Origin: a virus
Direction: 5' to 3' (one strand)
DNA: 64,000 bases
IMG/VR virus record: IMGVR_UViG_3300022908_000001
Location: 9,488 to 73,487 of that record
Shown: piece by piece, positions 31,584 to 60,437 of the stretch
Layout: every line of letters begins with the position of its first letter
How positions within the stretch are numbered: position 1 is the stretch's first letter
The notes under the pieces: model-generated
The model's database searches: none
What the model saw: only the letters and a program-made list of their open reading frames with translations
Told to the model about the DNA's origin: nothing
Position numbers and translations under genes: made by a program

Positions 31584-32215
31584 GGCTTTATAAATATAAT
31601 ATTTTCTGCGTTTATCAAGCCAATCCCCATCCTATAACCCTTACAGTGCTCAACAAATCTTTGCAGTAGTGCTCTGTCGCTGTTCCATTCAATGCACAAC
31701 ACTTTGCAACCAATATCATCTAAATCCATCTGTTTTAGTATGATTTCATCAAAACCTTCAGCGTCAATCGATATAAAATCAAACCGAACCTGCTTATTAT
31801 ATCTTTCGCATAAATCATGGTAAAAATCAGTCCACGACTTGATGTATATCGACGTTTTTTTGAACTTTACATCAGGCCAACGTTTGGTTTCTTCGAAATT
31901 AACCGTGCTAACCAGTCCCCTGTCTTCGCCATTTGGTACGTGGGCTTCCGATTCATAAAAATCAGCATCCCCCGTTTTGTCACCAATTCCTAAATTGAAT
32001 GTGCGGACATTTTTATTTTTAAGATGTAATTTATGAAGGTCTTTATACGTTTCACCCGGCTCCACCAAAACGGCTGACCAATTATTGTCTATAAGTAATT
32101 TTGAATTACTTAAGTCGATGCCATTATTGCTACCAATTTCGAGCAAATTACCCACATACCCATTGAAATAGTCGAGTACGAAAAGGTCTTCTTTATTTTG
32201 AGAATATGTATTCAT
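31580..32215 (-). CDS. FkbM-like SAM-dependent methyltransferase
   Basis: YSQNKED, LEIGSNNG...SNS, AVLVEP, DFISIDAEGFD...LCIE. Confidence 0.9.
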   Translation of the reverse strand: MNTYSQNKEDLFVLDYFNGYVGNLLEIGSNNGIDLSNSKLLIDNNWSAVLVEPGETYKDLHKLHLKNKNVRTFNLGIGDKTGDADFYESEAHVPNGEDRGLVSTVNFEETKRWPDVKFKKTSIYIKSWTDFYHDLCERYNKQVRFDFISIDAEGFDEIILKQMDLDDIGCKVLCIEWNSDRALLQRFVEHCKGYRMGIGLINAENIIFIKP

Positions 32216-34286: not shown

Positions 34287-35457
34287 TCAATACTTCTGTT
34301 TTCAATAACGGCAACAGCCTGTGCGAGAAATCGGCATCCTCACCATGCGATATTTCCGGGAACCTTACCATAAGCGCCAGTTCCCTGCGCACCGGACTAA
34401 TGTGGTTTGGCGTCCTGTATAACACACCATCCTTCTCAAACCAATGACCGTACTCTTTAGATATATACCACTTCCGAAAGTTCCAGCCATCAGTGCTTAC
34501 CGTACCGTTGATGCCAATGCAGTCTGGTTTCGACCCGATAGAGGCAAGTATCTGCGCCACGTAATACTCAGGCACTTTATCATCATCATCAACGAAAACA
34601 ACATACTCTCCCTTAGCCGCTTCAAGCAGGCTGTTACGCTTCTTGCCTATACAATCGATTTCATCCGAGTCCATCAGTATCTCAACGGCGTAGGTTTTCT
34701 GAGCTACTAAAGTAGCCAGTAGGGGTGCGAGTTGTTGTGCCCGTGATTTGGTTGTGGCAATCAGGATTGATAGCAACACTTCACACGAAGGGTGCCATTC
34801 CAAACTTTCGTATGAGTTTACCGGGTCAGCAATACCAAACCCTTCCACCAGCCTGCTTTCAAATAACAAACGTCCCTGTTCCTGTGTCAAATCATTCCGC
34901 TCGTTTATTTCATCCTTCTGCGTTTTTCCAGTTGTGTGGTGCAAATGCGGAAACTCCAGATTAGAATATATCAACCGCCCGGTCATATGCGCAACGGCGG
35001 TCAGGTCGGTGTCTGCGTACAAGTGCTTATAGCCTGGGTGGTAAATATATCCATACCGCTCATACCAAACCCGGTCAACAACCGGAAGTGTTACAAGGGT
35101 GGGCTGGATACCGTCACGGGTTTTTAGGACGAAGTCTGATTTGCCGGATAGTTCAGATAATAATCTTTCATCCCAACCATACTCACCGCAATCAAAATCA
35201 TCACTAACAACGATTAGTATCTCTCCTGTAGCGTGTTTTGCAGCATTATTAATAGCCTCAATGGCTGATTTGTTTGGTAATCTTATAGCTGGCGTGTCTT
35301 TAGATATGGTTTCATCGTCAGTATCAACGCTCATTAGGTATTGGATATTTTCGGGGTATTTCGCCTTACAAATCCACCTTTTATTTGTAGCGAGCATTTG
35401 CTGTGGCCTGCCTCGGGATGGATGTATTATAGTTATGCTTTTCATTGACTTAGCCAT
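34243..35457 (-). CDS. Double-domain GT2-like glycosyltransferase, 404 aa
   Basis: Domain 1 IIHPSRGRP...VVSDDF...YADTD; domain 2 LSILIAT...IGKKRN...YVVFVDDDD...GEDADF. Confidence 0.88.
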   Translation of the reverse strand: MAKSMKSITIIHPSRGRPQQMLATNKRWICKAKYPENIQYLMSVDTDDETISKDTPAIRLPNKSAIEAINNAAKHATGEILIVVSDDFDCGEYGWDERLLSELSGKSDFVLKTRDGIQPTLVTLPVVDRVWYERYGYIYHPGYKHLYADTDLTAVAHMTGRLIYSNLEFPHLHHTTGKTQKDEINERNDLTQEQGRLLFESRLVEGFGIADPVNSYESLEWHPSCEVLLSILIATTKSRAQQLAPLLATLVAQKTYAVEILMDSDEIDCIGKKRNSLLEAAKGEYVVFVDDDDKVPEYYVAQILASIGSKPDCIGINGTVSTDGWNFRKWYISKEYGHWFEKDGVLYRTPNHISPVRRELALMVRFPEISHGEDADFSHRLLPLLKTEVLIEPQMYYYDFRSYK

Positions 35458-36080
35458 TTCTGTATCTTCTCCGTATTATCCATCAACTCAGCCAGATTCT
35501 TATTCGGTAAGGTAGCGGCTATTTTAGCGGCTTCGAGGCGGGATGGTAGAACCAAAAATCCCTGTTCGTTAAAATCCTTCATAAGTTGTTCGGGTGATTT
35601 GCCAATCTTTACAAGATCGGTATACCTCAATATAGCGCCTGCCTTATCTTCTTTAGGATGAAGCGCGCATGTTTCTTTACATAGCAATATGTTAGGTGCT
35701 GTCAACTCAATACCCATATCCTGCATAATGCCCTCCAGTTCATTATCTATCAAAACACGTGTGCCACTTTCGTAAACCCTTACCAATCCCTTACTTGATT
35801 CTTCGAGTGTGAAGTTTTCTGTCATAATAATGTAAAAAATACCGGCAACCCAAAATGAGATATTAAGCGCAAACGAAATATTGGACAATCAGGGTGTACC
35901 GGTAAAATCTTTATGTTGGTCGTCCATTATCGTTTGCTCCCCAAGTATCGGAACAATATTTGGCTTTACCAAATTTGTGAATACTTTTTTCTCCGGCCCC
36001 ACCGCAACGGGCACACGCACTGCCTGCACCCTACCCTTCACGCACGCAGCGGCTTCTTCTAAGAGGACTTTGTAGTTCAT
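35442..36080 (-). CDS. Two hypothetical genes heading the leftward unit (35442-35826, 35889-36080)
   Basis: ORFs downstream of a TATCTTTA element placed 5 nt before the ATG at 36080. Confidence 0.5.
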
Positions 36081-36334
36081 GGGTGTAAAGATACCACTTA
36101 GGTTGTAAAGTTGGCTTATTTTTGATTTTGGGTGTGTAGATGTGATATGGGTGCAGCCACCTATAGACGGGTGGGGTAGATCCGTGTGTGAAAAGTGCGT
36201 TTACTGAACCGGCGTACCCTCAAATATTTTCAAAAGCATTCCGGATAAAGGATGCTGTTGTGAGGCCGATAGGACATAGGGAAGCTATTCTAACAACTAC
36301 TTGATAATTATAGTATTAATACATATATTGTGTT

Positions 36335-36676
36335 ATGAATAGAATAACATCTTGTATCTACATGATACTGTTTGACAACAATATGTGTTATATTGGCAAA
36401 TCAGATGCACCATATTTAAGATTTTATAAGCATATCTCATTACTAAAATCTAACAGGCATGGTAATAGAATAATGCAACAAGCTTATAATGAAGGTCACT
36501 TTAAATCTATTGATTTTGCTGTTGTTAGAGAGGTTGATAGAGATGTTGTAAGCGACTGGGAGAAGTTTTATATATTCCTTTATAACAAAACAGCCTATAA
36601 TATTATGTGCAATAGGAATTATAAAAAGACTGGAAAATCTGAAAGATACATGAACAATAAAGTAGAATTAGTATAA
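36335..36676 (+). CDS. GIY-YIG endonuclease
   Basis: CIYMI...CYIGKS...RFYKH...HGN..MQQAYN...EKFYI...YN. Confidence 0.85.
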   Translation: MNRITSCIYMILFDNNMCYIGKSDAPYLRFYKHISLLKSNRHGNRIMQQAYNEGHFKSIDFAVVREVDRDVVSDWEKFYIFLYNKTAYNIMCNRNYKKTGKSERYMNNKVELV

Positions 36677-36807
36677 CTTTTTGGGAATAAGTATTATAGG
36701 CAATAATCAATCTCATAAGTTATCTTATGTATACTAAACTTTGTTTACATATACTAAACCCTCCTACCCTACCCATATTGTGAAAACTGTTTATATTTGG
36801 TAGCTAT

Positions 36808-37176
36808 ATGCCAGTCAACAACCAACTATTACACACTATTTGCCGCTCAAGGCTAATCGATAGGAACCTGATAGCTAAATATATCCCGCACAAAGCTAAT
36901 AAGAGGCCGTCACGAGCATTAGATGTATTACTGATAGTCTACTGTCACCCAAACAAAACAATGTCTTATATCAAGGCTTTGCAGCATAATAAGAGCGATA
37001 CAATATCAGATCATGTTAATAGCTTGGTTCAGCTTGGTTATTTAAGTAAGAAAAACCGGCAAAGATTTGTCCCGCAAATAAATTGCTGGAAGGGTGAATT
37101 TGTTTACAATGTCACAAAACACGGTCAAGACGTTCTAAACGCTGTTTTTGGATCAGTTGGAGAGGGGAAATACTGA
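36808..37176 (+). CDS. Winged-helix (MarR-like) DNA-binding protein
   Basis: TISDHVNSLVQLGYLSK...YNVTKHGQDVL; TATATTTG promoter just upstream. Confidence 0.65.
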   Translation: MPVNNQLLHTICRSRLIDRNLIAKYIPHKANKRPSRALDVLLIVYCHPNKTMSYIKALQHNKSDTISDHVNSLVQLGYLSKKNRQRFVPQINCWKGEFVYNVTKHGQDVLNAVFGSVGEGKY

Positions 37177-37412
37177 GATAGATAACCGTTCGGTTACATA
37201 ATATCCCTTATTAAGTATCATTTATTGTAGCCATTTGACTACCTATTGCACCGCGCGTACACGTGAGAGGGGAAAAGTGTGTAATTTTTTCTAACTGATA
37301 ATCAACGTGTTATAAATAAATGTATATTTATTGTATATTTTATTTGTATATATCATATATCTACCTTATACTTGTATTGTCAAATGGATGACGAATTAAA
37401 AACTTAGCAGTT

Positions 37413-40400
37413 ATGAAAGCCTTACCAATCCTAACCACAGTAAACTACAATTTAGCTAACGAATCATACAGCGCAACACGTCACGACATTAATACACGCA
37501 TTACTTTCCGCGGCTCTCATTGCGGCTTGCATGGATGTCATATAAATACATTCAGCGATCCACTTTGGTACTTAGGATCATTCACTAAGGCTCAAAGGCT
37601 CGAAAACTACACCAATGGTATGTTAGAGCAACTTGAGCGCCCATTCCATTTTACAGATGAAGAATGGGCTCAATTTGAGCATGATTACGCATCTGAAATA
37701 CATTCAGAGCGCTGTCTTGCACGCGAAATGGCAAACTATTAAGCAACTCTAAGTTCTGCTAAGTCTTAGCAGTCTGCCAGCGCATACCTCACAAGGGTTG
37801 CGCTTAAGGCAGTAAAAGACCACAACAAAATGACTAACAACGAAAAAGTACAAAAGAATATTCACCTCACAGACGAGGTAATATCAGGGCTAAAGGATTT
37901 ATCTTTGAAAGAGGATAGAACATTGAAGGCCTTTATCGAACGTGAACTAATCGCAATGGCTGCAAAGGGTGTGAGCTACCTCGACCTTTACACCCAATAC
38001 GAACGCACAGCACAAAAGTTGAGGGAGATATTAGAATGAGAATAATAGACAACACCCCAAACGGGATAGCAAAAGCTTCGATATTAAAATACCAAGAAGC
38101 AGACCGCAAGAGTAGGGTAATGATGCTGAAATTTGTAAATGAGCAACTAAATTTCTTTTTTCAGTATAATGACGATCAAGTGAAAGCGGCTCATATATTC
38201 TTAAAACTAACTAACCACATTTAAAAACATACGAAGATGAAAACAGATTACAACGGGTGGAAAAACCGCCAGACATGGAACGTAGCTTTACACATTGGTA
38301 ATGATTATAGCCTATACAAATCAGCAGTTGAGTTTGTAAAGAATATCGGCGATCAAAACCATAACAAGCTATATATGAAGTTTGTTAAACATATCGGCTT
38401 GCGTGGCGAACGCACACCTGATAATATTGCATACGATGGCAGCCGCTTAGACTACAAGGCACTGAATGAATTTATGCGTGACATTATTAACTAACCCCAT
38501 CACAACCAAATAAAAGAGAGATTATGAAAAAGTACATCATCGCACAAGACAAACAGGGTAAGTTTATTGTATTCGCTACCATATCAGACCTTAGGGATGA
38601 ACTGGACAATATTAAATCATGGTTAAGTATCAGGGCTGACTCGATAGAAGAGGCGATAGATAGGTTTCCAGAAATTGAGGCTAAGTATGATAAGATCAAT
38701 AAGGCGGACAGCCTGAAACATATCATAGACCTGTCTTAACCACCGCAGAGTCAGTTAATAAATTATGTAAATAAGAGGAGAAAATGAAAATAAAAAAATC
38801 ACTATGGCAGCACGAAATGGAGTTAGAAACGCTCATTATTGTATATAAAAAAATGATAGAATGCCGGGATGATAAGGAAACGATAGAGAGGCAATGGCAG
38901 AAGATTTTAGATAAACATGAATTTATAAACTTAACTTACACAGCATAATGAACACACTAACAACACTACAGATCGACCTGCCAACTTTCTTACTAAGCAT
39001 GGCACTGATCCAGGCACTCGCACACATCCTCCCCCTTGTTGACTGGAAAGAAGAAACGAGGGATTTGAGGGAATTGTTTACCACAAAATCAATTGAGAAG
39101 ATATGAAAACCAACGAACTACAAAAACTAAAAGAGCGCCAACTTGCCTACAATGCCAAGTGGAGCGAGGGTAAAAAACTATTAAGGATGTATAACTGTCC
39201 TTCATGTAACAAGCCTAACCAAACTCCAATGCCAACACGAAAAGATGTGTCAGGTAAGGGATATTGGGACAGCTTAACCACTTGTTACGAGTGTGGCGAC
39301 TGCTACTTTGTGATAAAGTATCCGAAGTCATTAATGTTACCTCATGGTAAAATACTGATCAGAACTATAGATGGAGTAGATCACGATGCCGACATTCAGG
39401 CAGAGAGCCAACCTAAATCGAATATCGATAAACTTGTAGATTTGCTATGAAAACATATCAAGCACCTCCGGTCAACAAACCTACACGAAAAGAAATCAAA
39501 TTCTGGCAGGCACAAGACAAATACGGTTGTGCCATTGAGAATAATAATTCAATAGCCATTCTCCGGGCTAAGTACGGAGCAAGTGTAATTTATAAAGCTA
39601 TAAGATGAAAACAGACCACACAGAAGCGAAACCATTTATGGAAGCTATGAGTAAATCAGCCGATGCTGACAAGGTAGTGAAGTTATTTCAAGAATTGTGG
39701 AATGATTCTGCTAATAATATGTACAATATAAGTAAATGGCAAGAAACATTTGTACTACTTTTAAATGTAGCAAAACCTACGAGACTTTAGCCATCCGCTA
39801 ACATTTAACGCAAAAAAGGAAAGATTATGAAAAAGCTAATTAAGGATATGTCAGACGAGGAAGTCATGGACGTATATAAAACAAGGTCTGTAGCCGCCCA
39901 AAAAGATATACTATACTTAGCATTGATTATAATAGTCGGCACCAACAAGACTCGTAATGAAGCTATAATTGAATCGGTAAAACATCTTTATATAGACTAA
40001 CCATGCCAACCAACCCAAATGAGCCGGTAAGCCCGGTGACAATAGATGTGAAGCTGACTATAAAAGAGGCGAAACGTATTGAAATGGCATTACGTGCTTT
40101 ACCATACCCCATGTACGAAGAGCGGGTATTCAATAATATGCTGGCTGACAAGTTAGACGCCCTAATCAACGCACTTAATGAGAAAACGAAATGATAAACT
40201 GGACAGATTCAGCAGAAATACCCAAGCCTGCTACAGACGACAAATGGAGTCACGACAATGATCTAAGCAACCGGGTATTGGTGGCAAGTTATAATGGAAG
40301 GGATGGCGAGATTCAACCTGCAAGGTTTGCCCGGTATCACTTTAGGTTAAATTGGTGGAATATTGAAGGTATAACCGGAGGTAATTATATTGTTACGCAT

Positions 40401-40890
40401 TATTCAGAGATTAATATGCCGGATAACGCACTTAATCAGAAAGAGGGATGAAAAAACTAATCATAAACAATTGCAACCAATGCCCCCACTTCAAGGTGAG
40501 TGAGATACATGGCATAGATGACTCATATAGGGCAACCTGTAACCATCCTGATATTGACAGTGTAGATTGGTCAGTCAAGCGTGGCAGAGACGCTTACATA
40601 CCTTTATTCTGTCCATTGCCGGAGAATGTGGAACTTGACGAGTTTTTTAACCCTTAACCCCAAACAAGATGCAGAAAAGTAAAACCCATACAATCGTAGA
40701 CAAGGCGCGTGCCAACATGCCAAGCCATCCTGTGGTCCGTATACATTCAGTATTCACAGGATACGTATATTACGATGTTAGTACCAATAAGAAGCATTGC
40801 CGAAATCCTATACATAGTGGAGTTACGGATTATAACAATCGGTATCTTGGAAGATACAGCGACCTTACAAATAGATACCTTGATTTTTAA
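37413..40890 (+). CDS. Early region 1: run of about 15 small hypothetical genes
   Basis: Densely packed 50-115-aa ORFs. Includes a Zn-ribbon protein (39103-39450, CPSC...CYEC), a YNGWKNRQTWNVAL protein (38237-38494) and a DUF551-like protein (40191-40451). Confidence 0.6.
37756..37817 (+). promoter_or_regulatory. Double stem-loop element after the first early gene
   Basis: CTGCTAAG-T-CTTAGCAG, one unpaired T, then a bulged hairpin. The second stem recurs at 52025. Confidence 0.55.
37830..38039 (+). CDS. Ribbon-helix-helix-like DNA-binding protein
   Basis: KNIHLTDEVISGLKDLSLKEDRTLKAFIERELI, a strand-helix-helix pattern. Confidence 0.6.
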   Translation: MTNNEKVQKNIHLTDEVISGLKDLSLKEDRTLKAFIERELIAMAAKGVSYLDLYTQYERTAQKLREILE

Positions 40891-40919
40891 CCCCTACTAA
40901 ATAAAGAGAGGAAGATACG

Positions 40920-41033
40920 CAGAGGGTGGTGGAATTGGTAGACACACCCTGCAAGGTGAGGGAGGGTTCGATCCCCTCTGAAAAAACTGGGTGCACTCTT
41001 TGAAGGTTCGAGCCCTGCCCCTCTACCCCGCCA
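40920..41033 (+). ncRNA. tRNA-like RNA with an expanded anticodon arm
   Basis: Acceptor CAGAGGG/CCCTCTA, D-arm GTG-GAATTGGTAGA-CAC, T-arm GAAGG-TTCGAGC-CCTGC, and 39 nt enclosed by ACCC/GGGT. Confidence 0.7.
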
Positions 41034-41339
41034 GTCCCCTAACAAGACTGGCTTTTTTAAAAACTAATAATATGAAAGTACGAATAACCCAATCAAGTAA
41101 ACCATCATACTGGTACGCTGATAAAGTAGGACAAGAGTTCTACGTAACAGACCATGACCATAGAAGCTACAAGGTTACACCCGGTGGTCACTACATCCGC
41201 ATGGTTGACTGTGATATACTAAGCCATACCGAATTCGGCGATTCATATTGTGTTATACCTGCCAGCATCACCTACTTACTCAACAGGTTATTTAATGTGC
41301 TTGGTGGGTGACTGGCTTTTTTGTTTCAGGGAAGTTTTG

Positions 41340-41463
41340 TATATTTACCTCAATCCTATACGGCCAGCTATGTTTCGCAACTTCCTGATTGCCGTATCGC
41401 CAGAACGCTCAGGCTTAATGCCCTCGCTTCGGAAACCCGTTCAGAAATGTCCGGGTTTTTTTT
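41340..41463 (+). ncRNA. Putative small transcript with promoter and terminator
   Basis: TATATTTA at 41340, ATACGGC/GCCGTAT pairing, terminator AAACCCG...CGGGTTTTTTTT. Confidence 0.4.
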
Positions 41464-41579
41464 GTGGGGTAGGTATAGGGGGAGAAATGGGATTATTAAC
41501 GTGGAATATCATCGAATTTGACAAAATATATTATCCCTGTATTTAAAAGCGTACTTAAATTTAATTAGTAAATAGTAGA

Positions 41580-43103
41580 TTAAAAAGGTGCATCTGGACT
41601 ATCAAATTTAACATTCGGCTCAAGCTTAATATCCGGGTGAGGAGCAGCTTGTTTTTTGGGCTTTTTAGCACCCCTTACAGCATTATCGAACTCTTTATAT
41701 TCCCAGTCCCTGAACTTCATAAATGCCCCATTAAACTCAAGCTTAACCGTATCGCAAATGCCATTACGGTTCTTTGCAAATATTATCTCTGTTAAGCCCT
41801 GTGTTGGAAGGTTATCCTCATTATGGGTTATACCATAGTATTCAGGCCGATAAAGGAAAATAACCTGATCTGCATCCTGTTCAATAGCACCAGACTCACG
41901 TATATGCGAAAGATTTGGCCTTTTTGTTGGCGTTTTTTCAACCTCACGGTTTAATTGAGATAGAGCTATTACAGGTATATCCAATTCTTTTGCAATTGCC
42001 TTTAACGCCTGACTAATACTGCTTACCTCTTGCTCTCTTATACCGTTCTTTGAGCTGGTTCCCTTCATTAATTGCAAATAGTCAATTACTATCAATCCGA
42101 TATTATGCTGTTGTTTGAGCCTTCTTGCCTTTGAGCGAGCCTCAATAATACTCAACGATGGTGTGTCATCAATAAATATTTTATTCGTTTGTAGTAGCTT
42201 ATTTGAAGCTGATTCAATTCTTTCAGCATCATAGGGTGTTAATCGTCTTTTTACAAGGTCATCCATAAATATATTAGACTCAGAAGATATTAATCGTTCA
42301 GATAACTGAACCTTTGACATTTCAAGACTGAATATTAGAACCGGGCAGTCGAAATCTATAGCTGCATTTCTTGCTAACTGTAACGCAAACGCTGTTTTAC
42401 CCATTGAAGGCCGGGCAGCTATAATTATCAATTCGGACTTTCGCCATCCATTTGTTAAATTGTCGACGGCCAAATATCCGCTACCAACCCCCACCAATCC
42501 TGTTATCTCCGGCTGCTTTAATTCAATAAGCTTTTGTGCTATCAACGTTGAATTATCAACAGCAGAATTACTTCTTTTATCGCTGATAACAGAAAATAAA
42601 GCGGCTTGATTTTTTTCAATTATATCAAAAGCATCCGAAGTGTCGTCATAGGCCTCGTTTATAGTTTCAGTACAAATCCTGATTGCCTCCCGTTGCATAA
42701 ACTTTTCAACTATAATTGCCGAGTGGTATTCAATATTAGCGGAAGAGGTAACCCTGTTTGTTAATTCGGTAATATAATAAGCATCGCCAATCATTTCCAA
42801 TTCTCCCTGTTTTCTTAATTGGGAAGTCACGGTTAAAATATCAACAGGTTTATTTTTTGAAAAAAGATTAATTATGGATGAGTATATTTTTTGGTGGCTG
42901 TCTTTGTAAAACATTTCTGGCTTTAATCGCTCTACAACCTCAATCAATGCATTCTTTTCAAGAAGCAATGCGCCTAATACAGCTTCTTCCAAGTCAGTTG
43001 CCTGCGGTGGTAATTTACCTAAGCCTGAATACGGCGTTGGATTTGTAATCCTTGTTCGCAATGGTTTACTGTAAACATCTTCGTTTTCTAATATCATTTC
43101 CAA
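41580..43103 (-). CDS. dnaB: Replicative DNA helicase
   Basis: LPPQATDLEEAVLGALL, AARPSMGKT, FSLEMS, IVIDYLQLM, LSQLNR, RESGAIEQDAD, AKNRNG. Confidence 0.97.
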   Translation of the reverse strand: MEMILENEDVYSKPLRTRITNPTPYSGLGKLPPQATDLEEAVLGALLLEKNALIEVVERLKPEMFYKDSHQKIYSSIINLFSKNKPVDILTVTSQLRKQGELEMIGDAYYITELTNRVTSSANIEYHSAIIVEKFMQREAIRICTETINEAYDDTSDAFDIIEKNQAALFSVISDKRSNSAVDNSTLIAQKLIELKQPEITGLVGVGSGYLAVDNLTNGWRKSELIIIAARPSMGKTAFALQLARNAAIDFDCPVLIFSLEMSKVQLSERLISSESNIFMDDLVKRRLTPYDAERIESASNKLLQTNKIFIDDTPSLSIIEARSKARRLKQQHNIGLIVIDYLQLMKGTSSKNGIREQEVSSISQALKAIAKELDIPVIALSQLNREVEKTPTKRPNLSHIRESGAIEQDADQVIFLYRPEYYGITHNEDNLPTQGLTEIIFAKNRNGICDTVKLEFNGAFMKFRDWEYKEFDNAVRGAKKPKKQAAPHPDIKLEPNVKFDSPDAPF

Positions 43104-48558: not shown

Positions 48559-50925
48559 TTAGTAACGGGTCGCGCCTCGTTCATACTTGGTGAGCGAAGT
48601 CAGCCATTTAACGCCGGGATTCCTGAAATCAATCAGGTGCTTTTTGTCCTCGTCAAATTTGGGAGGGTTCCGGGTTATCTTTTCACGCCCGATTGTTTGG
48701 GCGATTATGGCGGGGTCGGTGCGGTAATTAATTGTTTTCATATTTCTATTTTATTTGGTTTCATATCCTAATATCTCTTTTTAGTTATAGAAAAGTCAAT
48801 GCCATTAAACCTGAGACCAAGTGCCCAGCTACTTGTAAATTTAGCATCGATTCTGTTTTTCCATTCATCTTCGAGCATTTCGAAATCTTCATAGCCCAAT
48901 TCTAAATGAATCAATGCATTTTCAACCCTTAGCCCATTGCAATCAATTTCAGACAATATGCATGATAACTGTTCAATTCTTTCTATCTGTGTCATTTCTC
49001 ATATCCTAAAAGTCCATGTACTTCAACAATTAAAAGTTCCTGATTCAACGCCTCAATGACCCGCTCACAAGCCGCATAATCGCCACGATCCAATACAGCC
49101 TGAACCAATTCCTGTTCGGTTTCGGCAATCGTCAGCAGCAGGAAGTTGCGCTCGTCCTGTAGGGTTATGGGTGGTTTTGGACGGTTCATGATTGATGATA
49201 GTAATAAATTAAAAAGTATCCTTCGCCAACGTTCATGAATAGAACGGATACGACTTCTATGTTTCTTTGCGAATTGACCCATATGTTGACAGCGTTATAA
49301 TTTTGACTCGTTACAGCATGGTTCATAAAAAGACGATCTGACTTTTTCATACCTTTTTCCAATTATTTTGCGCGTACTGAGCAAACCGACCAAAATTCTC
49401 ATTAACAACCAATAGTTTCTCTTTCCACGGCGCATCGTTATCGCCGCCGTATTGGTTAAAGAATGAGTTGATTATTATGGTTTGCATATCGTTATTGCCT
49501 TTGTATATATCGTTTATGTGCAGGTAGTTCTTTAGTTTCCATTCCAGTCCACTTGCGCCGGGTAGTATCAAACGGGGCTTGTTTTTATTTTTGTTTTTAC
49601 GGCTCATGCTTCCTCCTTCACTACCAACCCTAACTCCTTAACCACACTCTCCACAGGCAGAACGCCATATTCGTCATAAACCAGTTGCAGTAACTTCGCA
49701 GCAGGCAATGGTGGCAATTCAAGTCGCTCACGTGCCGTTATGCACCCCACCATATAGGCAAAGGCTTCGGCGTAGTTGTTAGTTGTTTTCATATGTTTAA
49801 TGCTTTGTTGATGGCTTGTCTCGCTATGTCTACATTCCAAGTTAATAATTGACCGTGTTCATCGTAATGATTCATAAGGTTTTGCAGGGACTCTAATAAG
49901 TCAGGTGCTGCGGCAATTAATCGAGCGTTTGAATGCTCTTCAACGCAGCAGCATGTTTCGACACCACAATCATCATCACTAATGTTGCCGACAAAAAGTA
50001 CCCTTTCAACAACACGCTCACCAAATTTCTTAGGTATAACGGCGGTGATTTGCCCTTTATGGGTTGTCCTTTTAATCCATGGGCCGGGAGTCCCCTTAAA
50101 TTGATTTGGAATTGCTGTACTCATATATGAACATTATTTAATATATCACCTAAAAAATTACTGAACTCTTGTAGTAGCTTATTTTCACCACCACCATAAT
50201 AATAGCCATAATCAAAATTATATCGCTGGCCACCATCTATGATATAAAACTCAAAACACTGGCAACCCATATCGGATTTATATGATTTATAATCATGGAC
50301 TGACACGTTAGCCCGTTTTGCCATTTGTAGTATTTTTCTTTTCATAAAATATCGCTTTCTATATCCCATCTCATAAGAGGACGATTTTCATCTTCATACT
50401 CCAATCCGAAGCTGTCAATTTCGCGGTGGTCGTCTTCTTCCCAACCACGGTTTCTGTTTTGGTATGCGTCAATTTCCGCGAGCTCAAATGGCGTAAATTC
50501 CAGCACCGATTTCGCCCTCGTTTGGGTGCGTTCGGTTGGTTTTAGTTCGGTTAGTTGTTTCATGACACAACCTCCAATGTTTTCGATTTGTGGATGTCGT
50601 CGATGTTGATGAAAGCCACAAGTTCGTCGGGTAAATCAATTTCAAAGGAGTATTCAGGCAGTAGTATCCGCTTTTCAGGCTTAGATAACAAACTGTCAAA
50701 TGTCTGTATAAAAAAGGTCGTATCATCCGAAATGTGCATTATACCAAAATTATCCGACAACCCATTTGGCCTTATGGCGTGATATCCGACATGGGCATCG
50801 GGAAATATATCTCTTATAGCTAAGGCTATAGCGCAATTCTCCCCCGTAGCACCAATGGCGCGAATAGTTCCGCACCACATACTCCTGCGCAGAACATCTT
50901 TAGTAACTGTAATCTTAATTTTCAT
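48559..50925 (-). CDS. Run of small hypothetical genes heading the leftward replication unit
   Basis: About nine coupled 60-120-aa ORFs, including a TPGPW...NARLIAAAPDLLE family protein (49789-50124). Confidence 0.55.
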
Positions 50926-50948
50926 ATCCTTTCCTTATTTGGTATAAG

Positions 50949-50980
50949 CAAACCTACAAAGTATAATTGGGATGTGCAAA
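50949..50980 (-). promoter_or_regulatory. Bacteroidota housekeeping-sigma promoter, leftward
   Basis: On minus: TTTG-N20-TAGGTTTG, a perfect TAnnTTTG; divergent from the rightward early unit. Confidence 0.75.
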
Positions 50981-51054
50981 TTTATTTTTATTTTTATTTT
51001 CAGATTTATTTGCAAATATAAAAAATAGTTCCGATACTTGTAATGTAATAAAAT

Positions 51055-51216
51055 ATGAGGGTAGACAAAAAATGGAATAAAGTCGCCAGTTAATATAAGG
51101 TTAACGAAAACATGTAAGTAGTTAATTGATAAATAACCGGAGAGGCAATAATCGAATTAAAGCAAAGTACACGCATTGATTTGTAGCCAATGCAGGTTCG
51201 AATCCTGCCCCTTATG
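51055..51216 (+). ncRNA. tRNA-like RNA with expanded anticodon and variable arms, 162 nt
   Basis: Acceptor ATGAGGG/CCCTTAT, D-arm GAC-AAAAAATGGAATAAA-GTC, stem CCAGTTA/TAACCGG enclosing 41 nt, perfect T-arm GCAGG-TTCGAAT-CCTGC. Confidence 0.65.
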
Positions 51217-51240
51217 CGAACTGGCAATCTTGCCGGTTTA

Positions 51241-51292
51241 ATTGTGATAAGGTTTAGGAAAGGACGGCGATACGCAAGGTTGATCCGTCCTT
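51241..51292 (+). ncRNA. Second copy of the ATTGTGATAAGGTTT/GATACGC hairpin motif
   Basis: 15-nt identity to 22421; stem AAGGACGG/CCGTCCTT with GATACGC in the loop; no U-tract. Confidence 0.5.
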
Positions 51293-51316
51293 AATTAAGA
51301 AAACAAAAAGAACAAA

Positions 51317-51550
51317 ATGATAAAATTAAACGAAGCGGCAAAAGAAAAGATTAAGAGCGACAGGCAGTTGTTTATAGAGGTTCAAAAGACCTTGAATGTA
51401 ACTGAAAATAGCCTTTATAGATTCATTAAAAATGATAGCAATAGGCTGACGGAAATAGATTGCCTTAATACTATTGTTGAATTTACCGGCATGCCTTTAT
51501 CTGCATTTGTTGATGGTAAAATAAGCAAACTAATTTGCAAACAATCATGA
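51317..51550 (+). CDS. HTH-like regulator
   Basis: EVQKTLNVTENSLYRFIKN; first gene of the rightward early unit. Confidence 0.55.
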   Translation: MIKLNEAAKEKIKSDRQLFIEVQKTLNVTENSLYRFIKNDSNRLTEIDCLNTIVEFTGMPLSAFVDGKISKLICKQS

Positions 51551-54333
51551 AAAAATTCTACCACTCCCTCTTCGCCAACAATAACCCAATCATCATATTG
51601 GCGATTGTAGCGATCGTACCGCTCTGTGCTGTCATTAAGACACAGAACCGGATACATGAGCAGGATTTGTTAAGGATCGATTCGTTGGGTTCGATACACA
51701 TCTCACCGCCCCATATCGATACGTTGAGTTGGTTGAGCGGGGGAGGGGAGATAAAGAGATGAAAATAAAAATAAAAATAAATTACAGAAGGGATACGTAT
51801 CATTTCTACACGTGGATATATAAAGGACAGCGCAATTTGGATGTATCGTTCCTTTTTAAAACTTATAAAGGTGTCTTGTCTGATGACTTTAAACGGATCG
51901 TATTAACAGAACCTATCATAATCGATGGGATTATGAATGATAAACCAAGGGTATTAAAACACTTGACAATTAATAAATGGGATGTTAAAGAGGTTGAACG
52001 GGAGTATTTAGGCATTTAAACCCCCTACCATCCTGACACCCTAAAACGGTTCAGGAGTTGGCGGTAAAAAATAGTAAAGAGTTATGAGAAGTTTAGAGTA
52101 TTTAATCCAATTATTCCCAGATAAAACGGGTACGGAGCTAATGAAAATTCAGGCAGATGATAAAAAATTGGATGCCGAAGAGTTTGAAAACAGAAATAGG
52201 GCGAAGCTTGACCTGATCAATGACATTAATACCAATGGTGGTTTTTACAGAGGTCGCTTTGGCATGGATCAGCGGTTTTATTACTCTTTTAAAAACTTAC
52301 AACTAATGAGTACTGCCATTTATTGTGACGTTACCACATTAGTTACTTTTTATCAGGACAACGGCACTATTCATATAGAATACCGTGAAGAAACATTTAA
52401 GGCATTTGAAAATTACGGTGTGGAAATATACGAGAAGATAACCAAGTCTGATTTTGATAAAGCCTACGAACTTTTGCAAGGGTTCAAAAATCAACTATGG
52501 AAAGATTAATTAAGGTTTTTTGGCGGTAAAGGAGAAAAAAGAAGATTATGGCAACAAGAGTAGATTTTTATGTAATGAGCCCGGATGGTGAATTGCAATT
52601 TATAGGGAATACCGTTAATGAGTATTACGGTGATTTTGAAAAAGCGACCAACGTTAAGGATTACCTTAAAAGTGTTCGTGAACTTTTAGCTATAAATAGT
52701 TCGATTGAGGGCAAGTGGTATTGGCCGTGGAAAACATCTAATATATCTGATGAGGTTTTTGTATTCAAACAAACTCCTACCTTTTTCAATAAGAACAAGG
52801 GCAAACTATTGTCTAAGGTTTATGTAAATGGTGAAGATAGGGACGAGAATTACCTATGGTTTGCCGATTACGATAAAAGGTATGATGAGAAATATATGGA
52901 CAATGACGAACGGGGATGGTATAAAAAAGAGTTCGCAACCAAGATAAAACTTTTGAGATTTGATTAACCACCCCCACAAATCAACCAGGTGGTGGAAAAG
53001 TAAAATAAAGAGAAGAGAATATGGAAAACAACAAAGATATTGTTTACGGCCCCGGCGATAATGATTACGGCAGGCGAAGCAAACCGGCACTCCGGCCATT
53101 TAATGAAATGAACTTTACGGAGTTTCAGGTACAATTAAGATGCTGTCTGATTATTAAAGACGGATTTGATAACGAGTGGATGCATGATTTTTATTCTGAC
53201 TTCATCGAAGATTATAGAGTTGGCAGATATGATACTGTTAAAGAATGGGCTGAATTTTTCTTTCAGGAAGTTACCCTTGACACGCATTCATATTGCCTAG
53301 TCACAAATATTTAACCAACCCCCGCCCATTTGATAGGTGGTAAAAAATAAGAGTATGGAAAATAATCAAAATTCAATAATTAGTGGGAATCTAAAGGGCG
53401 TTGTATGGTATTGGAGTCCGTGTTATTCAAATTATTTTAAGGATACAATTGATAGTTACGATGAAGAGTTAGATATGTATTACTTGAAAAATGCAGGTGA
53501 TTTCTTCCAGTATAATCAACTGTTTAAAACAAAACGTGAAGCAGCACTTGATGCGTTCCCGCCCCTAACCCCCTCCCCCGGTAAACCACGATAATAAAAA
53601 GAGATAGTATGCCAACTAAAAAACAATTGAATCTTATGATGGAATCAGACTTAGAGTTCGGTTACCCAAATGACAGAGGGTCAGAACATACCCCAATAGG
53701 AGAACGCGCCCAAACCGGTGTCCCCGAATGGCTTCGTCGCCAACGAGAAAGCCCGCAAGGTGAGGTTATAGGTAAAATAGTCCTCGATGAAGAAACCGGG
53801 GAAATGAGAATTAAACCTATAGACGACACTCGCCCCCATCCAAAGGGGAACACCTAAAAATTGAAATAGAATGAAAAATAGCGAATTAAACAAGCAGTTA
53901 GGTATTGGCCCCGGTGGAATTAACTGTGGTTGCTGTATTGATTATCCTAAAAAGCGTCAGAACCATAAAAAATTATATCGCAGGCTTAAGCGCAAGATTT
54001 TAAAAGTTTTGGCCCAAAAGGAAATTAAACACCCCCTATAACTCCAGGTAGTTAACAGGTAGAAAATTAAAAGGAGGAAAGATGAAAAATAGTATACCTA
54101 ATCTTAAAGAAAAGATCGAGGAGAATTTGAAAGAGCTTCGATATGGTGACAATATTACCGAACTAGTGTGTGTGCTTCAAAACCCCTTAGGCGGTAAAAT
54201 TCAGGTTCAATTAACCCTGATAAAGGTTAACGAAGATGATGAGTTTCAGGAAGCAATAGATGAGCACCCAAATACGCCTATTTTAAAAATTAACGGCGGC
54301 AAGGTTTTAACCTCTAACCAACCACCTAATTAG
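51547..54333 (+). CDS. Early region 2a: array of small accessory genes separated by junction motifs
   Basis: ORFs 51547-51762, 51759-52019, 52084-52509, 52548-52967, 53021-53314, 53355-53594, 53609-53857, 53871-54041, 54082-54333. Confidence 0.6.
52025..52069 (+). promoter_or_regulatory. Bulged hairpin, structural twin of 37774-37817
   Basis: CTACC-A-TCCTGA-C-ACC-CTAAAAC-GGT-TCAGGA-GTT-GGCGG-TAAAA. Confidence 0.55.
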
Positions 54334-55413
54334 ATGCGCACGTACAAAAGAAAATTGATCCTAACGGAAGCCCAAGAAAAAAGACTCAGGGCATGGATTG
54401 ATACGTGCAGGTGCGTTTATAATTTAGCTTTAGAAGTCAGGATAGAGTCGTATAAGAAATGCCAAAGGTCGGTACATAGGTACGATCTTATAAACCAGTT
54501 GCCGGAATTGAGAAAGGAGTACCCGTGGATAAATGATGTTAATTCTGATTGCCTTAGCAGGGTTATAAACAGGCTTTACATTTCATACAATAGATATTTC
54601 AAGAATGGGGCAAGCTTCCCAAAGTTTGCATCAAAAAGGAAATTTAAATCAATTCTATTCAGGCATGCATTATCCATAAAAAATAATATCATTAAATTAC
54701 CCACAATTGGTAATTTAAAAATGGTTAAGGATGCTCCGATTTTAGGAACACCCAAAACGATAATAGTAAAAATTGAACCAACTGGGCTGTTTGCATGTAT
54801 CCAATGCGATAGTGCCCTCTCCAAATTCACCAGTGAGAACCAATCTGTTGGACTGGACATGGGGATAAGCAAATTCTGTACAGATAGCAATGGTAAGTTT
54901 ATTGAAAACCCTAAACATTTTAAAAAGTATGAACGCAGACTGAGAATTGAAAACAGATCACTCGCCCGTAAAAAGAAAGGCAGCAACTCATGGAAAAAGC
55001 AATGCAAGAAATTGGCGTTGCTTCATTATAAGATTGGGAATGTTCGCAGGGATTTCCTGCATAAAGAAAGCACTTGTATAGCCAAATCCAATAGGGTGGT
55101 TTACCTTGAGAGTTTGAACGTTAAAGGCATGTCTAAAAATAAAAACCTATCAAAGCATATATTAGATTGCGGGTGGGGAGCATTCAGAGCAATATTAAGC
55201 TATAAGACGAATGTGGTAGCAGTCAGTCCAGCCTATACATCTCAAGGCTGCTTTGAATGCGGTGTGGTAGATAAGAAAAGCAGAATCAGCCAAAGTGAAT
55301 TCGTTTGCACGTCTTGCGGGCATGTGTCCCATGCTGACGTAAACGCAGCGAAAAATATTAAACGACAAGGCATGTTGCTAGATCGTCAACGTGAAGCGTT
55401 AGCTTGTGCGTAG
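54334..55413 (+). CDS. tnpB: TnpB RNA-guided endonuclease (IS200/IS605 family), solo
   Basis: N-terminal YKRKL...CRCVYNLAL, RuvC VGLDMG / VYLESL / HADVNAAKNI, Zn ribbon TSQGCFECG...CTSCG. Confidence 0.95.
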   Translation: MRTYKRKLILTEAQEKRLRAWIDTCRCVYNLALEVRIESYKKCQRSVHRYDLINQLPELRKEYPWINDVNSDCLSRVINRLYISYNRYFKNGASFPKFASKRKFKSILFRHALSIKNNIIKLPTIGNLKMVKDAPILGTPKTIIVKIEPTGLFACIQCDSALSKFTSENQSVGLDMGISKFCTDSNGKFIENPKHFKKYERRLRIENRSLARKKKGSNSWKKQCKKLALLHYKIGNVRRDFLHKESTCIAKSNRVVYLESLNVKGMSKNKNLSKHILDCGWGAFRAILSYKTNVVAVSPAYTSQGCFECGVVDKKSRISQSEFVCTSCGHVSHADVNAAKNIKRQGMLLDRQREALACA

Positions 55414-55465
55414 GTCTTTAAATCCAAAAAATACAGGATATGCCGGAATTAGAAAATAACATGGA
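55360..55465 (+). ncRNA. Putative TnpB omega/reRNA 3' scaffold and guide
   Basis: Overlaps the tnpB 3' end. GGCAT (55369) is complementary to ATGCC (55440); short ATCC/GGAT hairpin; guide would start near 55445. Boundaries are inferred. Confidence 0.45.
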
Positions 55466-58400
55466 AAATAAATATAAATCACTGATTTTAAAATACGAGA
55501 GAAAGGTAGAGGAGTTAACCCGTTGGGCTAAAAATAACCCAGAAACAACCAAGCACCTCTTTATCGTTCAAATCGATTTATGTAATGAATTCTTAAAAGA
55601 CCTCAAAGGAGAAACCATGATTAAAATAAGGTCAAAAAGAAGGCCAAATACAAACAAAAAGCGTCCAGCAAGGCGTTTTAAATAACCCCTTGAACTTTCA
55701 AACAAATAAAGCAGATGAAAAGCCCACAGGAAGAATTTGAAGAGATATTGAAAAAGTTTATAATAAACGATTATACCCGGGATAACTTCAATATTGAAAA
55801 ATCTATTTACGCATTTGTGCCAAAAGAAGTTATCTCAGCCATGCAATCCGCTTACAACCTTGCGTTGACCCATGCGAGTGAGGCGGCTACAAGTTGGGGA
55901 TTTACAAACGGTGATTACTCAACAGAACATGGGGTTGACAAGCAGTCCATACTAAACTTAATGATAAAGGAATGAAACAAAAAATAGCAATAGTCGGACA
56001 CGGCACGCCCAGTGAATTATCAGACCGGTTGTTAAAGCTGATTGATGAACAACGATTTGAAGTGGTTCAAATATCGCCAGAGGAAGCCCAAAAGCTTAAT
56101 TTCCGCGAACCCATGACAATACCTATAATGCCATTGAACACCTGCGATATGCCATTTCATCCACCAATGACAAGGCGGGAACGCAGGGCTTTAAAACGTA
56201 AAAAGCAATAATCATGAAAATTCAAACAAAACTAATAGACGGTAAGATGATGGGGCGGCCAGAATGCCCATATGAAGAATGGCATGACCTCGAACAAAGG
56301 AATGTGCTATACGATGAATGGTGCCGTGATAATCCGTATCTCCCAGCCCCAGCCTTTGATAAAGAAGGTGTGTTTGAGGCGGACAGATGGATAAGGCAAC
56401 GGAAATTACCTGGTGATTGGGAAATGTGCGTAGCTGATGGATATGATCCTATTTGTAAAACTGGCTACGAGTGGCAAGACATCTACATCCCAAAAGAAGT
56501 AAAAAAGGAGAATATGGAAAATAAAACCGGAATTGAACTAATCGCACAAGAACGTGCTGAACAAATTGAAAAACATGGCTGGAATAGCGAACATGATTCA
56601 CAGCACAGACATGGTGAATTAGCCATACAGGCTGCCGTTTTAGCTGCTTTGCATACAGATGCATATGTGGTTGACCCTGATAACCAATTTGGAAGTGGCG
56701 ATGATCCATGGCGCTTAGAAGAGAAATTACAGCACGATCAAATCCATTGCCTTAAAGTTGCAGGCGCTCTAATAGCCGCTGAAATTGATAGACTACAAGC
56801 CATCAACAAAGCCCTGCTATAAAAGAAAGGAACTGAACAAAAATGAAAAAAGCAAAAGAGTTTATAAATGATACTTGCGTATATGTCATAATATTTTGGC
56901 TTGCCGCATCAAACTATTTTAAAATTTAACCAACCATGACAACCAGCGAAAAACCTAAATGGGTGGAAGAAAGTGAAGATGAATTGATAGATAGAGTTAT
57001 TAATGAATGCTTATCTATTTACGGATATAAAACCGTAGATGATATTATCAACAATTCAAATCGAATAAGATATACCAAACCAAATAAGAATGAAAACTCC
57101 AGAACAGATACTACAAGAAAAGGGCTTTGATTACTCACATTGGCTAACTAATTACAATGTTGATATTATATCCGCCATGACCGATTACGCCTCCCAATTC
57201 AATCAACCCCTTTTAAACAAAAAGGACTTAGCCGTTATATTGAATTTACTACACTTTGCCAGTGACGGATGGTATGTAAAGGAAACCTACGATTCAGACT
57301 TATTTAAGTCGCATACAGAGCAAGAAAAATACGTTATCAACCTAATCAAAAAAATAAATGGAAGTATCTGAACCAGTTGAAAAACTATGGCGTAAATACT
57401 GTGAAGAGTGTGACGGTAGTTACATGATGTCTAAATCAAGTTTCGTCTATGCTATGCATGAGTTCAATCAACCCCCTGTTTCCGGTGAATCAATCGAAGT
57501 GACCAAAAACGAGGTAATTGAATCAAACGTAAAACAGGCGTTATTTTCAGCGTGGTTATTCTGTAAGCAGAATCCCAAGAAGGATTTTTCAGACTGGAAT
57601 CGGTATGATGAGGTATCAACTGATTTAATCGGCCTTATTAAAGAGGTGTTGTCTATTCAGCCTGTTTCCGGTGGGGAGGTGGAAGAACAGTTTATGAAGC
57701 GCCTAAACGATCTTGTTAACTATGATCTATCATGGGCTAAAACGGAAATAAAAGCCCTGCCATCTGTAAATGATGGAACTGAACATGCGTATTTTGATGG
57801 CTTTATACTTGGTGCAAACAAATCAAGAGCGCGAACTAAGCAAGTTTTTAAGGAGATGGGGCAATCCAAACAGGGAAGCGTTGATAACTGGATAAGTGTT
57901 GAAGTAGAGAAGCCGGAGACCGACACAATCGTTTTGTGTATTACAGAATATGGAAAATACTGTACCGGGTATTTTATGATGGGAGATGAATGGGATTTAT
58001 CAGGATTTGACAGCGCAAAGCCTCTTAATTTCGTTACCCACTGGCAGCCTTTACCAACCCCACCATCAAAATAACTACTATGAAAATAATCAAAGAAATA
58101 TTAAAGTTCGCAGGCGCATTCACATTATGCTTTATAGTAATTATAGGTGCCAGTTTCATAGTAATGGCATTAACCCAAAACGTCCCGATTAAGTTGGCAG
58201 CAACTGGTGATTACATAAAACACCAACAAGATGCGTTAGACATAAAAATTGAGGCTATGAAAGATAGCTGCCTGACTAATGTGAATAATACCAAAGTGTA
58301 CAATAACTATGTTGACAGCGTTAAAAAGTACACATATATTTACAATTACTTTAACCACCCATTGAAATGAAACAAATCCTAATAACAATCACACTGGCCT

Positions 58401-59683: not shown

Positions 59684-59794
59684 GAACATTAACCACAATT
59701 ATTTTTACACTGTCTGTAATTGTAGAGGTAATAACACTTGCGATGCTGTTTTGGAGATGGCGGCAGGCGTATAGGTTGAAGAAAAAGGAACGGC

Positions 59795-60085
59795 TTAAGC
59801 GGACTGCTCCGACGCAGGATTGACCAACGCCACAGGGTCACTACCCGTCTGCGTCACTGTCGGTTCGGCTTTCTTGCTTGCTATAGGCGCACCAAAATAC
59901 ACGGCAAGTACAGTTGAGGCTGTCCCCGTAACAAATCCGATTATGAGCGTCAGAACGGCTAATATGCGACCGTATTCCCACAGCGTATAGCCAACCATTA
60001 GTATGATTGCGCCTGACCATATGTAAGCGAGCGTTGCCCGTGTCTTTTGGTCAAATTCGGATTGTGCTTGTATGTCTGCCATCAC
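59795..60085 (-). CDS. Putative holin
   Basis: Two TM helices, LIIGFVTGTASTVLAVYFGA, polar C-tail, downstream of the tail gene. Confidence 0.6.
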   Translation of the reverse strand: MMADIQAQSEFDQKTRATLAYIWSGAIILMVGYTLWEYGRILAVLTLIIGFVTGTASTVLAVYFGAPIASKKAEPTVTQTGSDPVALVNPASEQSA

Positions 60086-60343: not shown

Positions 60344-60437
60344 TTGAGTAAACATAAACAATTTTTTGCAAAAACGAAAATTATTGGTTAGGTTTGGGCG
60401 TCCGGTAATTCAGCCGGAGGTAAAATCTCACAGAAAA

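Follow-up and report, generated by a model that had tools for sequence, protein, structure and literature searches.

What does a short bulged hairpin do when it recurs, in altered sequence, near the start of both early regions of a phage genome? The question is raised by a window of 64,000 nt, bases 9488-73487 of the complete 73,487-bp viral record IMGVR_UViG_3300022908_000001 (G000; 127-bp terminal repeat). The initial annotation had described two such hairpins in it and offered antitermination, RNA processing or single-stranded DNA recombination as their function. We find that the element is a real, undescribed and structure-conserved family confined to a small clade of uncultured phages. 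Among the functions offered, RNA processing or stability appears to be the most economical. Our preferred but tentative reading, with a probability of roughly 40%, is that the element is an intercistronic mRNA punctuation cassette, involved in attenuation, processing or stability, which may additionally serve as a recombination linker.

Two Related Hairpins in One Genome

Both hairpins read exactly as first described and occupy positions 37756-37817 and 52025-52069. In the first copy, an outer stem (CTGCC/GGCAG), a mid stem (AGCGCA/TGCGCT), a bulged T and an inner ACC/GGT stem lead to the loop TCACAAG, and the bases TAA are bulged out on the 3' side. The second copy repeats this design with an outer stem CTACC/GGCGG (containing one A.C mismatch and one G.U pair), an additional A, a mid stem TCCTGA/TCAGGA, a bulged C, the inner stem ACC/GGT, the loop CTAAAAC and a 3' bulge GTT. 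Below, we refer to these structures as hairpin B. The perfect stem that had been noted one base ahead of copy 1 is present as well (hairpin A, Table 1). Its palindrome occurs only once in the window, in a genome with three perfect palindromes having arms of at least 8 nt, and copy 2 lacks an upstream palindrome of this kind.

The reported nearness to the start of both early regions holds for each copy. The window contains two rightward blocks of small genes, starting at 36335 and 51317, and both copies come after the third open reading frame (ORF) of their block. A 141-aa ORF (52084-52509, + strand) lies directly downstream of the copy 2 leader.

The predicted folding energy of copy 1 together with the palindrome is -29.0 kcal/mol (z -4.88), a value equalled by none of 200 shuffled sequences, while copy 2 folds at -16.5 kcal/mol (z -2.53) and is equalled by 2 of 200. 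On both strands of the 73,487-bp genome, the combination of ACC-N7-GGT with a 1-nt 5' bulge and a 6-bp stem is found at these two places only. A full descriptor, comprising a 3-bp inner stem, a 7-nt loop, a 1-nt bulge, a 6-bp stem, a 3-4-nt 3' bulge, at least four of five outer pairs and finally TAAAA, gives 2 genomic sites versus a mean of 0.033 in 300 first-order shuffles. Ten of these shuffles contained at least one site, and none contained two or more.

A Family Confined to Close Relatives

Related phages offer a more demanding view of the element. Five records of ~75 kb encode a TerL that is 78-83% identical to that of the window. When regions of 1.1-1.3 kb were compared with these relatives by blastn, the element stretch alone aligned and the flanking genes did not. 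The hairpin stretch of copy 1 was matched in four of the five records and that of copy 2 in one. In G001, window positions 37750-37841 aligned at 78% identity, so that the match begins within the 5' flank of the element, and the end of this flank, ...ACTGTATAAGTT, precedes the palindrome in copies G001a and G002b as well. Record G003 holds the hairpin type of copy 2 at 88% identity. It also carries a tail nearly identical to that of copy 1 (TAAAAGACTATAACAAA), and the part TAAAAGAC of the copy 1 tail recurs in G001a, G004b and G007a.

Because a MAFFT alignment of five first copies placed gaps in the mid stem, separate covariance models were built for the two hairpin types: R1 from three copies with the loop TCACAAG and R2 from two copies with the loop YTAAAAC. 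A third model, R3, was built from a model-fitted alignment of nine full copies. Copy 1 scores 68.5 bits with R1 and 60.3 bits with R3; copy 2 scores 67 bits with R2 and 49.4 bits with R3, and is found at E 0.016 by R1, which was built without it. We searched 37-39 records picked by similarity of their terminase or of F1, the gene downstream of copy 1. Matches to R1 (7 of 37 records) and R3 (7 of 39) are restricted to the close clade formed by G000-G004, G007 and G039, and no model matched in G006, whose terminase is 52% identical, or in ~30 records at ~27% identity. The covariance-model search suggested by the initial annotation did therefore return other instances. The listed copies comprise ~14 full-length and several reduced ones, with 1-4 per genome, and further copies reside on short metagenome contigs. 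An alignment search of metagenome contigs with F1 gave four loci, among them two short contigs of 1816 and 1999 nt that may be new; the 1816-nt contig harbors one further copy.

Outside this clade, the searches were negative. Rfam gave no match over the window at gathering score and none over either copy at E up to 1. Among 50,697 deposited phage genomes, neither the 101-nt element (blastn) nor positions 36000-42000 (megablast) found a match, in agreement with the original description of the element as a new one. The pattern ACC-N7-GGT-N9-GGCRGTAAAA matched 56 times in IMG/VR, never with a 6-bp stem, and we regard these matches as chance. A scan for the third loop type returned five stretches, four in known relatives and one without stems. 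For the 109-aa and 141-aa proteins of the flanking ORFs, no relatives were found in IMG/VR.

Conservation of Structure and Strand

Comparison of the nine full copies allows the pairing to be followed base by base. Standard pairs fill 89.6% of the cells, and double changes affect 8 of 14 base pairs (26 cells), whereas six slid controls show 0-3 such pairs. The covariation score of 0.587 compares with 0.200 for shuffled partners and was reached by none of 500 shuffles. RNAalifold, left unaided, proposes essentially the same fold, with 13 pairs of which 8 are compensatory. The compensatory changes proposed from the two window copies are thus borne out, and the swaps are visible by eye in the first five copies. 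The outer stem occurs as CTGCC/GGCAG, CCGGC/GCCGG and CCGCC/GGCGG, and the mid stem as AGCGCA, CCGCA, ACCTCA, TCCTGA, GCCTGA, GCCCGA or CCCCAT, each with its complement.

Conservation is concentrated at the base of the hairpin, which consists of the outer helix CYGCC/GGCRG, an A on the 5' side, the GC-rich mid stem and the tail UARAAGA. The 3'-side bulge has 3-4 nt, all of them A or U except for one G. The most conserved sequence is the hairpin base with the tail, GGCRG-UARAAGA. The apical part is variable, and its loop or apical stem takes at least six forms. At least 10 of the 18 listed copies are immediately preceded by a first hairpin of the hairpin A type, whose sequence differs between lineages: it is identical to that of the window in G001a, has two changes in G002b and is replaced by different hairpins in other copies. 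No such hairpin precedes copy 2, G007b, G002c or the reduced copies, the latter being composed of a short GC hairpin, (A)UUU, GGCAG and UARAA.

The strand on which the structure acts can be approached from its imperfect pairs. Read on the coding strand, the stems contain 11 G.T or T.G pairs versus 3 A.C or C.A, so that this strand folds better. Every listed copy is co-oriented with a downstream ORF on the same strand; in the case of G002c, the copy and its gene are both found on the opposite strand of the record. Because of the G.T bias, the co-orientation with genes and the complete turnover of stem sequences, the comparison favors an RNA structure over a double-stranded protein site or a template-strand hairpin of the N4 kind; single-stranded DNA of the sense strand would be compatible too.

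Placement Relative to Start Codons, Promoters and Terminators

The element always occupies the gap between a stop and a start codon. From the hairpin base to the ATG there are 16-19 nt in 9 of the 18 listed copies and 9-47 nt in the rest.

Which transcription signals should be expected nearby depends on the host. The window encodes a terminase, a portal, virion proteins, a DnaB-type helicase and a YqaJ-type nuclease. Its TerL shares only ~26% identity with TerLs of cultured Flavobacterium, Cellulophaga and Tenacibaculum phages and 27% with a prophage gene on a Lacibacter chromosome. Gene starts have A-rich leaders in place of Shine-Dalgarno sites, and TAnnTTTG boxes are present at the head of the early block, farther upstream of the element. 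Based on these distant TerL relatives, the lack of Shine-Dalgarno sites and the TAnnTTTG boxes, a host among the Bacteroidota is plausible, and so is the Bacteroidota-phage origin named in the initial annotation.

Consensus-based scans found no TAnnTTTG/TTG promoter within 260 nt upstream of 12 of 15 copies, which speaks against the suggested put-like placement near early promoters. In the same way, no sigma-70-like site was found in 37743-37829 or 52020-52083, and no terminator-like site at either window copy. Terminator-like sites on the + strand number 4 in 35800-41700 (4.1 expected) and 4 in 50800-61400 (9.1 expected), with a single convincing terminator at 61319, at the end of the array. 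As neither a promoter nor a terminator accompanies the element, it is either internal to a longer transcript or uses signals not recognizable here.

In copies with a long loop, a conserved mini-ORF of four codons, ATG-NNT-CTC-AMT-TAA (MSLN, MVLN or MILT), starts 7 nt past the hairpin and just ahead of the real gene start. It is located at 38320-38357 (- strand) in G001, at ~2303-2335 in L188 and at ~1231-1260 in L200, and G004a has ATG-TAA, a start followed by a stop, at the same place.

Downstream Gene F1 and Reshuffling of Genes

A gene of the F1 family follows an element in G000, G001, G003 and G004. Protein-atlas features of F1 lean toward the ribbon-helix-helix clan. This assignment is unconfirmed, as there is no Pfam match and no notable sequence match in PDB; an AlphaFold2 model (mean predicted local distance difference test score 65) has three helices and no strand, and Foldseek returned nothing for it at E up to 0.001. 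Element and gene are not strictly coupled. G002 has kept palindrome A and has no F1 homologue, G038 has F1 with no element upstream, and G039 displays a plain hairpin with a U-tract at the place upstream of F1, with the element ~600 nt further on.

The gene maps of the early blocks are mosaics among the relatives, and the parts of the element take part in this. In G003, a hairpin of the YTAAAAC type (B2) is joined to F1 and to a tail of the copy 1 type (B1). Palindrome A is combined with the TCACAAG hairpin in G000 and G001, and in G002b it is separated by 40 inserted nucleotides from a different hairpin (B4). In G001 and G004, a copy of the long-loop type precedes the same downstream block, the same loop is found in the G039 copies, and the L200 copy at the equivalent place behind F1 differs in its apical part. 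Two copies can also enclose genes: a 75-aa gene in G002, and an F1-like gene with the stretch following it in G007. In genomes with 3-4 copies, two copies are only ~370-530 nt apart. The element is thereby situated where the gene content of relatives differs, and the association with boundaries of gene gain and loss that had been anticipated is observed.

Possible Functions

As an intercistronic punctuation cassette, the element would be a cis-acting structure in the early polycistronic mRNA, assembled from a variable hairpin A, hairpin B, the tail UARAAGA and the start codon. Hairpin B can be viewed as a GC-rich hairpin with a 3-4-nt A/U stretch, clamped by the covarying outer helix. The GC hairpin and its short A/U stretch might attenuate or pause transcription arriving from the promoter-proximal regulator genes. 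The outer helix would form in read-through RNA only, resulting in a stable bulged hairpin of 14-15 bp. Clamped in this manner, the hairpin may act as a processing or decay boundary, which would protect either the upstream cistrons from 3' exonucleases or the 5' end of the downstream cistron. The unstructured, A-rich initiation region would at the same time be kept free of upstream sequence. Since the hairpin base and tail are the only conserved DNA among unrelated small genes, the copies could furthermore act as homology patches for gene swapping.

RNase III sites in T7-type early mRNAs contain about two helical turns of double-stranded RNA and are cleaved in an internal loop, and SP82 early-RNA sites provide a polypurine 5' stabilizer. 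The element resembles these sites as an intercistronic hairpin with an asymmetric internal loop (0-1 by 3-4 nt) in early podovirus-type RNA, followed by a purine-rich leader. However, its helix has only 14-15 bp, and that of the reduced copies 4-7 bp.

Several observations weigh against the punctuation cassette. The full hairpin is followed by UAAAA and not by a U-tract, so that it is no canonical intrinsic terminator, and the inner hairpin is followed by an A/U stretch of 3-4 nt only. The total helix is short for a classical RNase III site. The element is found at only 1-4 of the ~100-115 genes per genome and can therefore be no general insulator. Two versions of hairpin A are perfectly palindromic to the center, which hints at a DNA-level site, as an RNA hairpin needs no perfect palindromy through its center. 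The alignment behind the pair counts was fitted to a model, which favors structure, and four spacers of 17 nt, being those of homologous F1 leaders, do not count as independent.

The closest known counterparts are the promoter-early stem-loop (PeSL) cassettes of T4-type phages (PMC2839356 and PMC4122927). In the account of Arbiol and colleagues (PMC2839356), each PeSL combines a promoter with a stem-loop in the space between genes, and PeSLs lie on the flanks of ORFans and mediate shuffling. The likeness extends to several features. In both cases, a composite motif fills the gap from stop to ATG in an early, ORFan-rich variable region, the GC-rich stem-loop includes G.T pairs, and copies flank genes that differ between close relatives, with a single gene between two copies in G002 and the F1-like gene plus a following stretch between two in G007. 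The modules A, B and tail moreover appear in different combinations. In contrast to PeSLs, which carry a strong host-type early promoter, the element has no recognizable host promoter of the Bacteroidota or sigma-70 type. Its hairpin contains bulges, has an outer helix as a clamp and usually comes behind a second hairpin, and the element is present in 1-4 copies per genome, compared with dozens of PeSLs. The element is best filed as a variant of the phage intercistronic regulatory stem-loop cassettes.

A terminator-promoter cassette in the strict sense of the PeSLs, in which the hairpin stops transcription and GGCRG-TAAAAGA is a phage-specific promoter or start site, is in our view unlikely. 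It would agree with the hairpin base and tail being the most conserved sequence, with the fixed short distance to the ATG and with cassettes being flanked by two copies, as is the case for PeSLs. But no Bacteroidota-type -7/-33 boxes lie in or near the element, the scan of 37743-37829 gave no sigma-70-like site, and the scanned proteins include no RNA polymerase or sigma factor. The covarying outer helix, in addition, spans the supposed terminator, which is sensible only if the RNA runs through the whole element.

The initial comparison was with the put RNAs of phage HK022, which lie behind each early promoter and ahead of terminators that are read through, bind the beta' zinc-binding domain, and suppress pausing and termination. 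Put RNAs are ~70 nt long, form two bulged stem-loops separated by ~1 nt and occur once per early operon, putR being ~270 nt from its promoter (PMC9378689). The resemblance consists in two adjacent bulged stem-loops in early operons, with one or more such elements per operon, and, if the element acts at all, in cis action as RNA. Copy 1 consists of a 17-nt hairpin A, 1 nt and a 39-nt hairpin B (57 nt); copy 2 and at least three others have no hairpin A. There is no sequence relation to put, the second hairpin stands alone in several copies, its apical part is hypervariable, and the plausible host belongs to another phylum.

Processive antitermination of the put or nut type, in which the nascent two-hairpin RNA, by itself or together with a phage protein, would bind the host RNA polymerase and make it resist pausing and termination through the long early arrays, appears quite unlikely. 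The two hairpins in at least 10 of 18 listed copies, the single window copy per early block, each behind the third gene, and the location of the structure on the transcribed sense strand would all suit it. Against it stand the copies without hairpin A (copy 2, G007b, G002c and the reduced ones), the apical half of hairpin B, which differs wholly between copies (at least six loop types), and the genomes with 3-4 copies, two of them in close succession. The spacing to the next start codon tends to a fixed value, which is needless for a polymerase-modifying RNA, and downstream terminator-like sites on the + strand are not above chance. The more specific proposal of an antiterminator for the Bacteroidota RNA polymerase, switching from regulator genes to long early arrays, is improbable too. 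If true, it would be the first such cis-RNA outside the lambdoid phages of enterobacteria and would extend a mechanism that only very few systems are known to use.

A site acting at the DNA level seems similarly improbable, whether as an operator for a dimeric protein such as F1, or as a folded single-stranded site for replication priming or site-specific recombination (attC-like or IS200/IS605-like) or a hairpin promoter of the N4 type. Hairpin A, perfect to its center in two sequence versions and unique in each genome, would be in line with a DNA-level site, as would the ribbon-helix-helix look-alikes of F1 by protein features, its position after the element in G000, G001, G003 and G004, and the location of elements at breakpoints of gene content. 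The turnover of stems with pairing kept, together with the G.T bias of 11 to 3, does not fit a double-stranded operator or a template-strand N4-type hairpin, and palindrome A and F1 occur without each other in G002 and G038, respectively. Among the scanned proteins, there is no integrase or Y1 transposase.

The single-stranded variants can be examined one by one. Integron attC sites carry RYYYAAC ... GTTRRRY core sites in an imperfect hairpin with extrahelical bases at cassette boundaries. The element shares the imperfect hairpin with extrahelical bases at gene boundaries, but it ends in CYGCC ... GGCRG-TAAAA, is far shorter and is always tied to a translation start. Neither copy has attC-type core sites, and no integron integrase was found among 46 window proteins, a subset of the ORFs, scanned with PHROGs or Pfam. 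In IS200/IS605 elements, subterminal hairpins flank tnpA/tnpB. Linkage to IS200/IS605 is excluded: TnpB, encoded 2.3 kb from copy 2, is present in three of the seven genomes laid out (G000, G001 and G003), while elements are present in six of the seven. The attC-like or single-stranded recombination site offered by the initial annotation thus fails on core sites, on an integrase among the scanned neighbors and on this linkage. In N4-type promoters, a template-strand hairpin of 5-7 bp with a 3-nt loop is used by a giant virion RNA polymerase. The element differs in its 14-bp hairpin with a 7-nt loop and in G.T pairs that favor the non-template strand, and the window proteins of 1505, 1349 and 844 aa showed no RNA polymerase domain. 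A K-turn, an anticodon-loop mimic, a CRISPR-repeat mimic and a sigma-54 promoter were dropped by eye, as their defining bases are absent.

Least probable, and by our estimate very improbable, is that the copies lack a function of their own and are scars left by recombination, or a decayed selfish miniature repeat whose folding is fortuitous. This could be suspected from the few copies per genome, the mixture of full and reduced forms, the insertion in G002b, the absence upstream of F1 in G038 and the plain hairpin in G039. Speaking against it are the compensatory changes, which affect 8 of 14 pairs in genomes with unalignable flanking DNA, the strict co-orientation with genes and the intergenic placement.

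Coordinates and Neighboring Features

Table 1. Positions of the element copies and associated features in the window
Feature	Position	Strand	Details
Conserved 5' flank AACTCTAAGTT	37745-37755	+	just past stop codon of upstream ORF 37413-37742
Hairpin A, perfect 17-nt palindrome CTGCTAAG-T-CTTAGCAG	37756-37772	+	followed by single T at 37773
Hairpin B, copy 1, 39 nt	37774-37812	+	CTGCC-AGCGCA-T-ACC-TCACAAG-GGT-TGCGCT-TAA-GGCAG
Purine-rich tail and leader TAAAAGACCACAACAAA, 17 nt	37813-37829	+	TAAAA at 37813-37817; ATG at 37830
F1, 69-aa protein, may be ribbon-helix-helix-like	37830-38039	+	downstream of copy 1
Hairpin B, copy 2, 40 nt	52025-52064	+	CTACC-A-TCCTGA-C-ACC-CTAAAAC-GGT-TCAGGA-GTT-GGCGG
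Tail and leader TAAAAAATAGTAAAGAGTT, 19 nt	52065-52083	+	TAAAA at 52065-52069; ATG at 52084
Candidate reduced copy, CCACC...GGTGG hairpin	52968-52995	+	fold -9.5 kcal/mol; A-rich leader after; no model match
Candidate reduced copy CCGCC-CATTTGATA-GGTGG-TAAAA	53322-53345	+	weak R1 match, E 0.074; ATG 14 nt on

The candidate at 52968 begins immediately behind a stop codon. Early spacers often open with TAA-CC(A/C)CC at the stop codon (38495-38523, 38740-38783, 40891-40990, 52020, 52968, 53315 and 55686), and in some of them a GGYGG partner downstream gives rise to small hairpins. On the + strand inside ORF 54082-54333, AAACCCCTTAGGCGGTAAAA at 54180-54199 looks like AAACCCCCTACC ... GGCGGTAAAA, the two sides of copy 2, without the hairpin core between them, and may be a remnant or chance. 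Ahead of the first gene of the second block (51250-51316, + strand), a hairpin AGGACGG...CCGTCCT is followed by TAATTAAGAAAAC and an A-rich leader. Its general design is like that of the element, but it is undetected by the models; in G001, a reduced element copy precedes the homologue of this gene.

Some further observations concern G004. A homologue of a 66-aa G003 gene (MTNLKIQSTLQCHG...) is spread over two frames at ~31840-32060 (+ strand), reflecting a frameshift or a sequencing error. Another reduced copy, GGCCAGC...GCTGGCC-TTT-GGCAG-TAGAAAA, lies ahead of the split G004 gene, 60 nt after G004a. The hairpin scan also revealed a 12-nt unit (TATAGCTGTGAG and variants) repeated in tandem arrays at ~34900-35260 (- strand).

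The first ORF of the first early block (36335-36676, + strand) contains a GIY-YIG nuclease domain (Pfam E 5.9e-08) and may be a gene of the homing-endonuclease type; none of the six relatives compared has a homologue. In the second block, the TnpB-type protein (359 aa, 54334-55413, + strand; OrfB_IS605, Cas12f1-like TNB and HTH_OrfB_IS605) is encoded tightly among small phage genes, 26 nt from the next gene, with no TnpA seen, and its homologues, at 33% identity, are found in G001 and G003 only.

Motifs resembling a tRNA T-arm, GGTTCRANYCC, occur on the + strand at 40965, 41005 and 51195 (3 versus 0.43 expected by chance), within the regions 40921-41015 and 51172-51210. The stretch 40921-40985 (+ strand) is tRNA-like, with acceptor, D and T arms and no anticodon arm. 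For these motifs, ARAGORN made no call, relaxed settings included, except for a doubtful intron-containing one at 51095-51217, and Rfam gave no tRNA match at E up to 1.

Implications

Little is known about gene regulation in phages of Bacteroidota, and the signals learned from coliphages do not carry over, because Bacteroidota use neither Shine-Dalgarno sites nor promoters of the sigma-70 type. Where the regulator genes give way to the early gene arrays, a compact, covarying RNA module offers a concrete and testable handle on the punctuation of early transcripts. The element also marks where these phages exchange small genes, and it could join RNA family libraries for the annotation of this clade.

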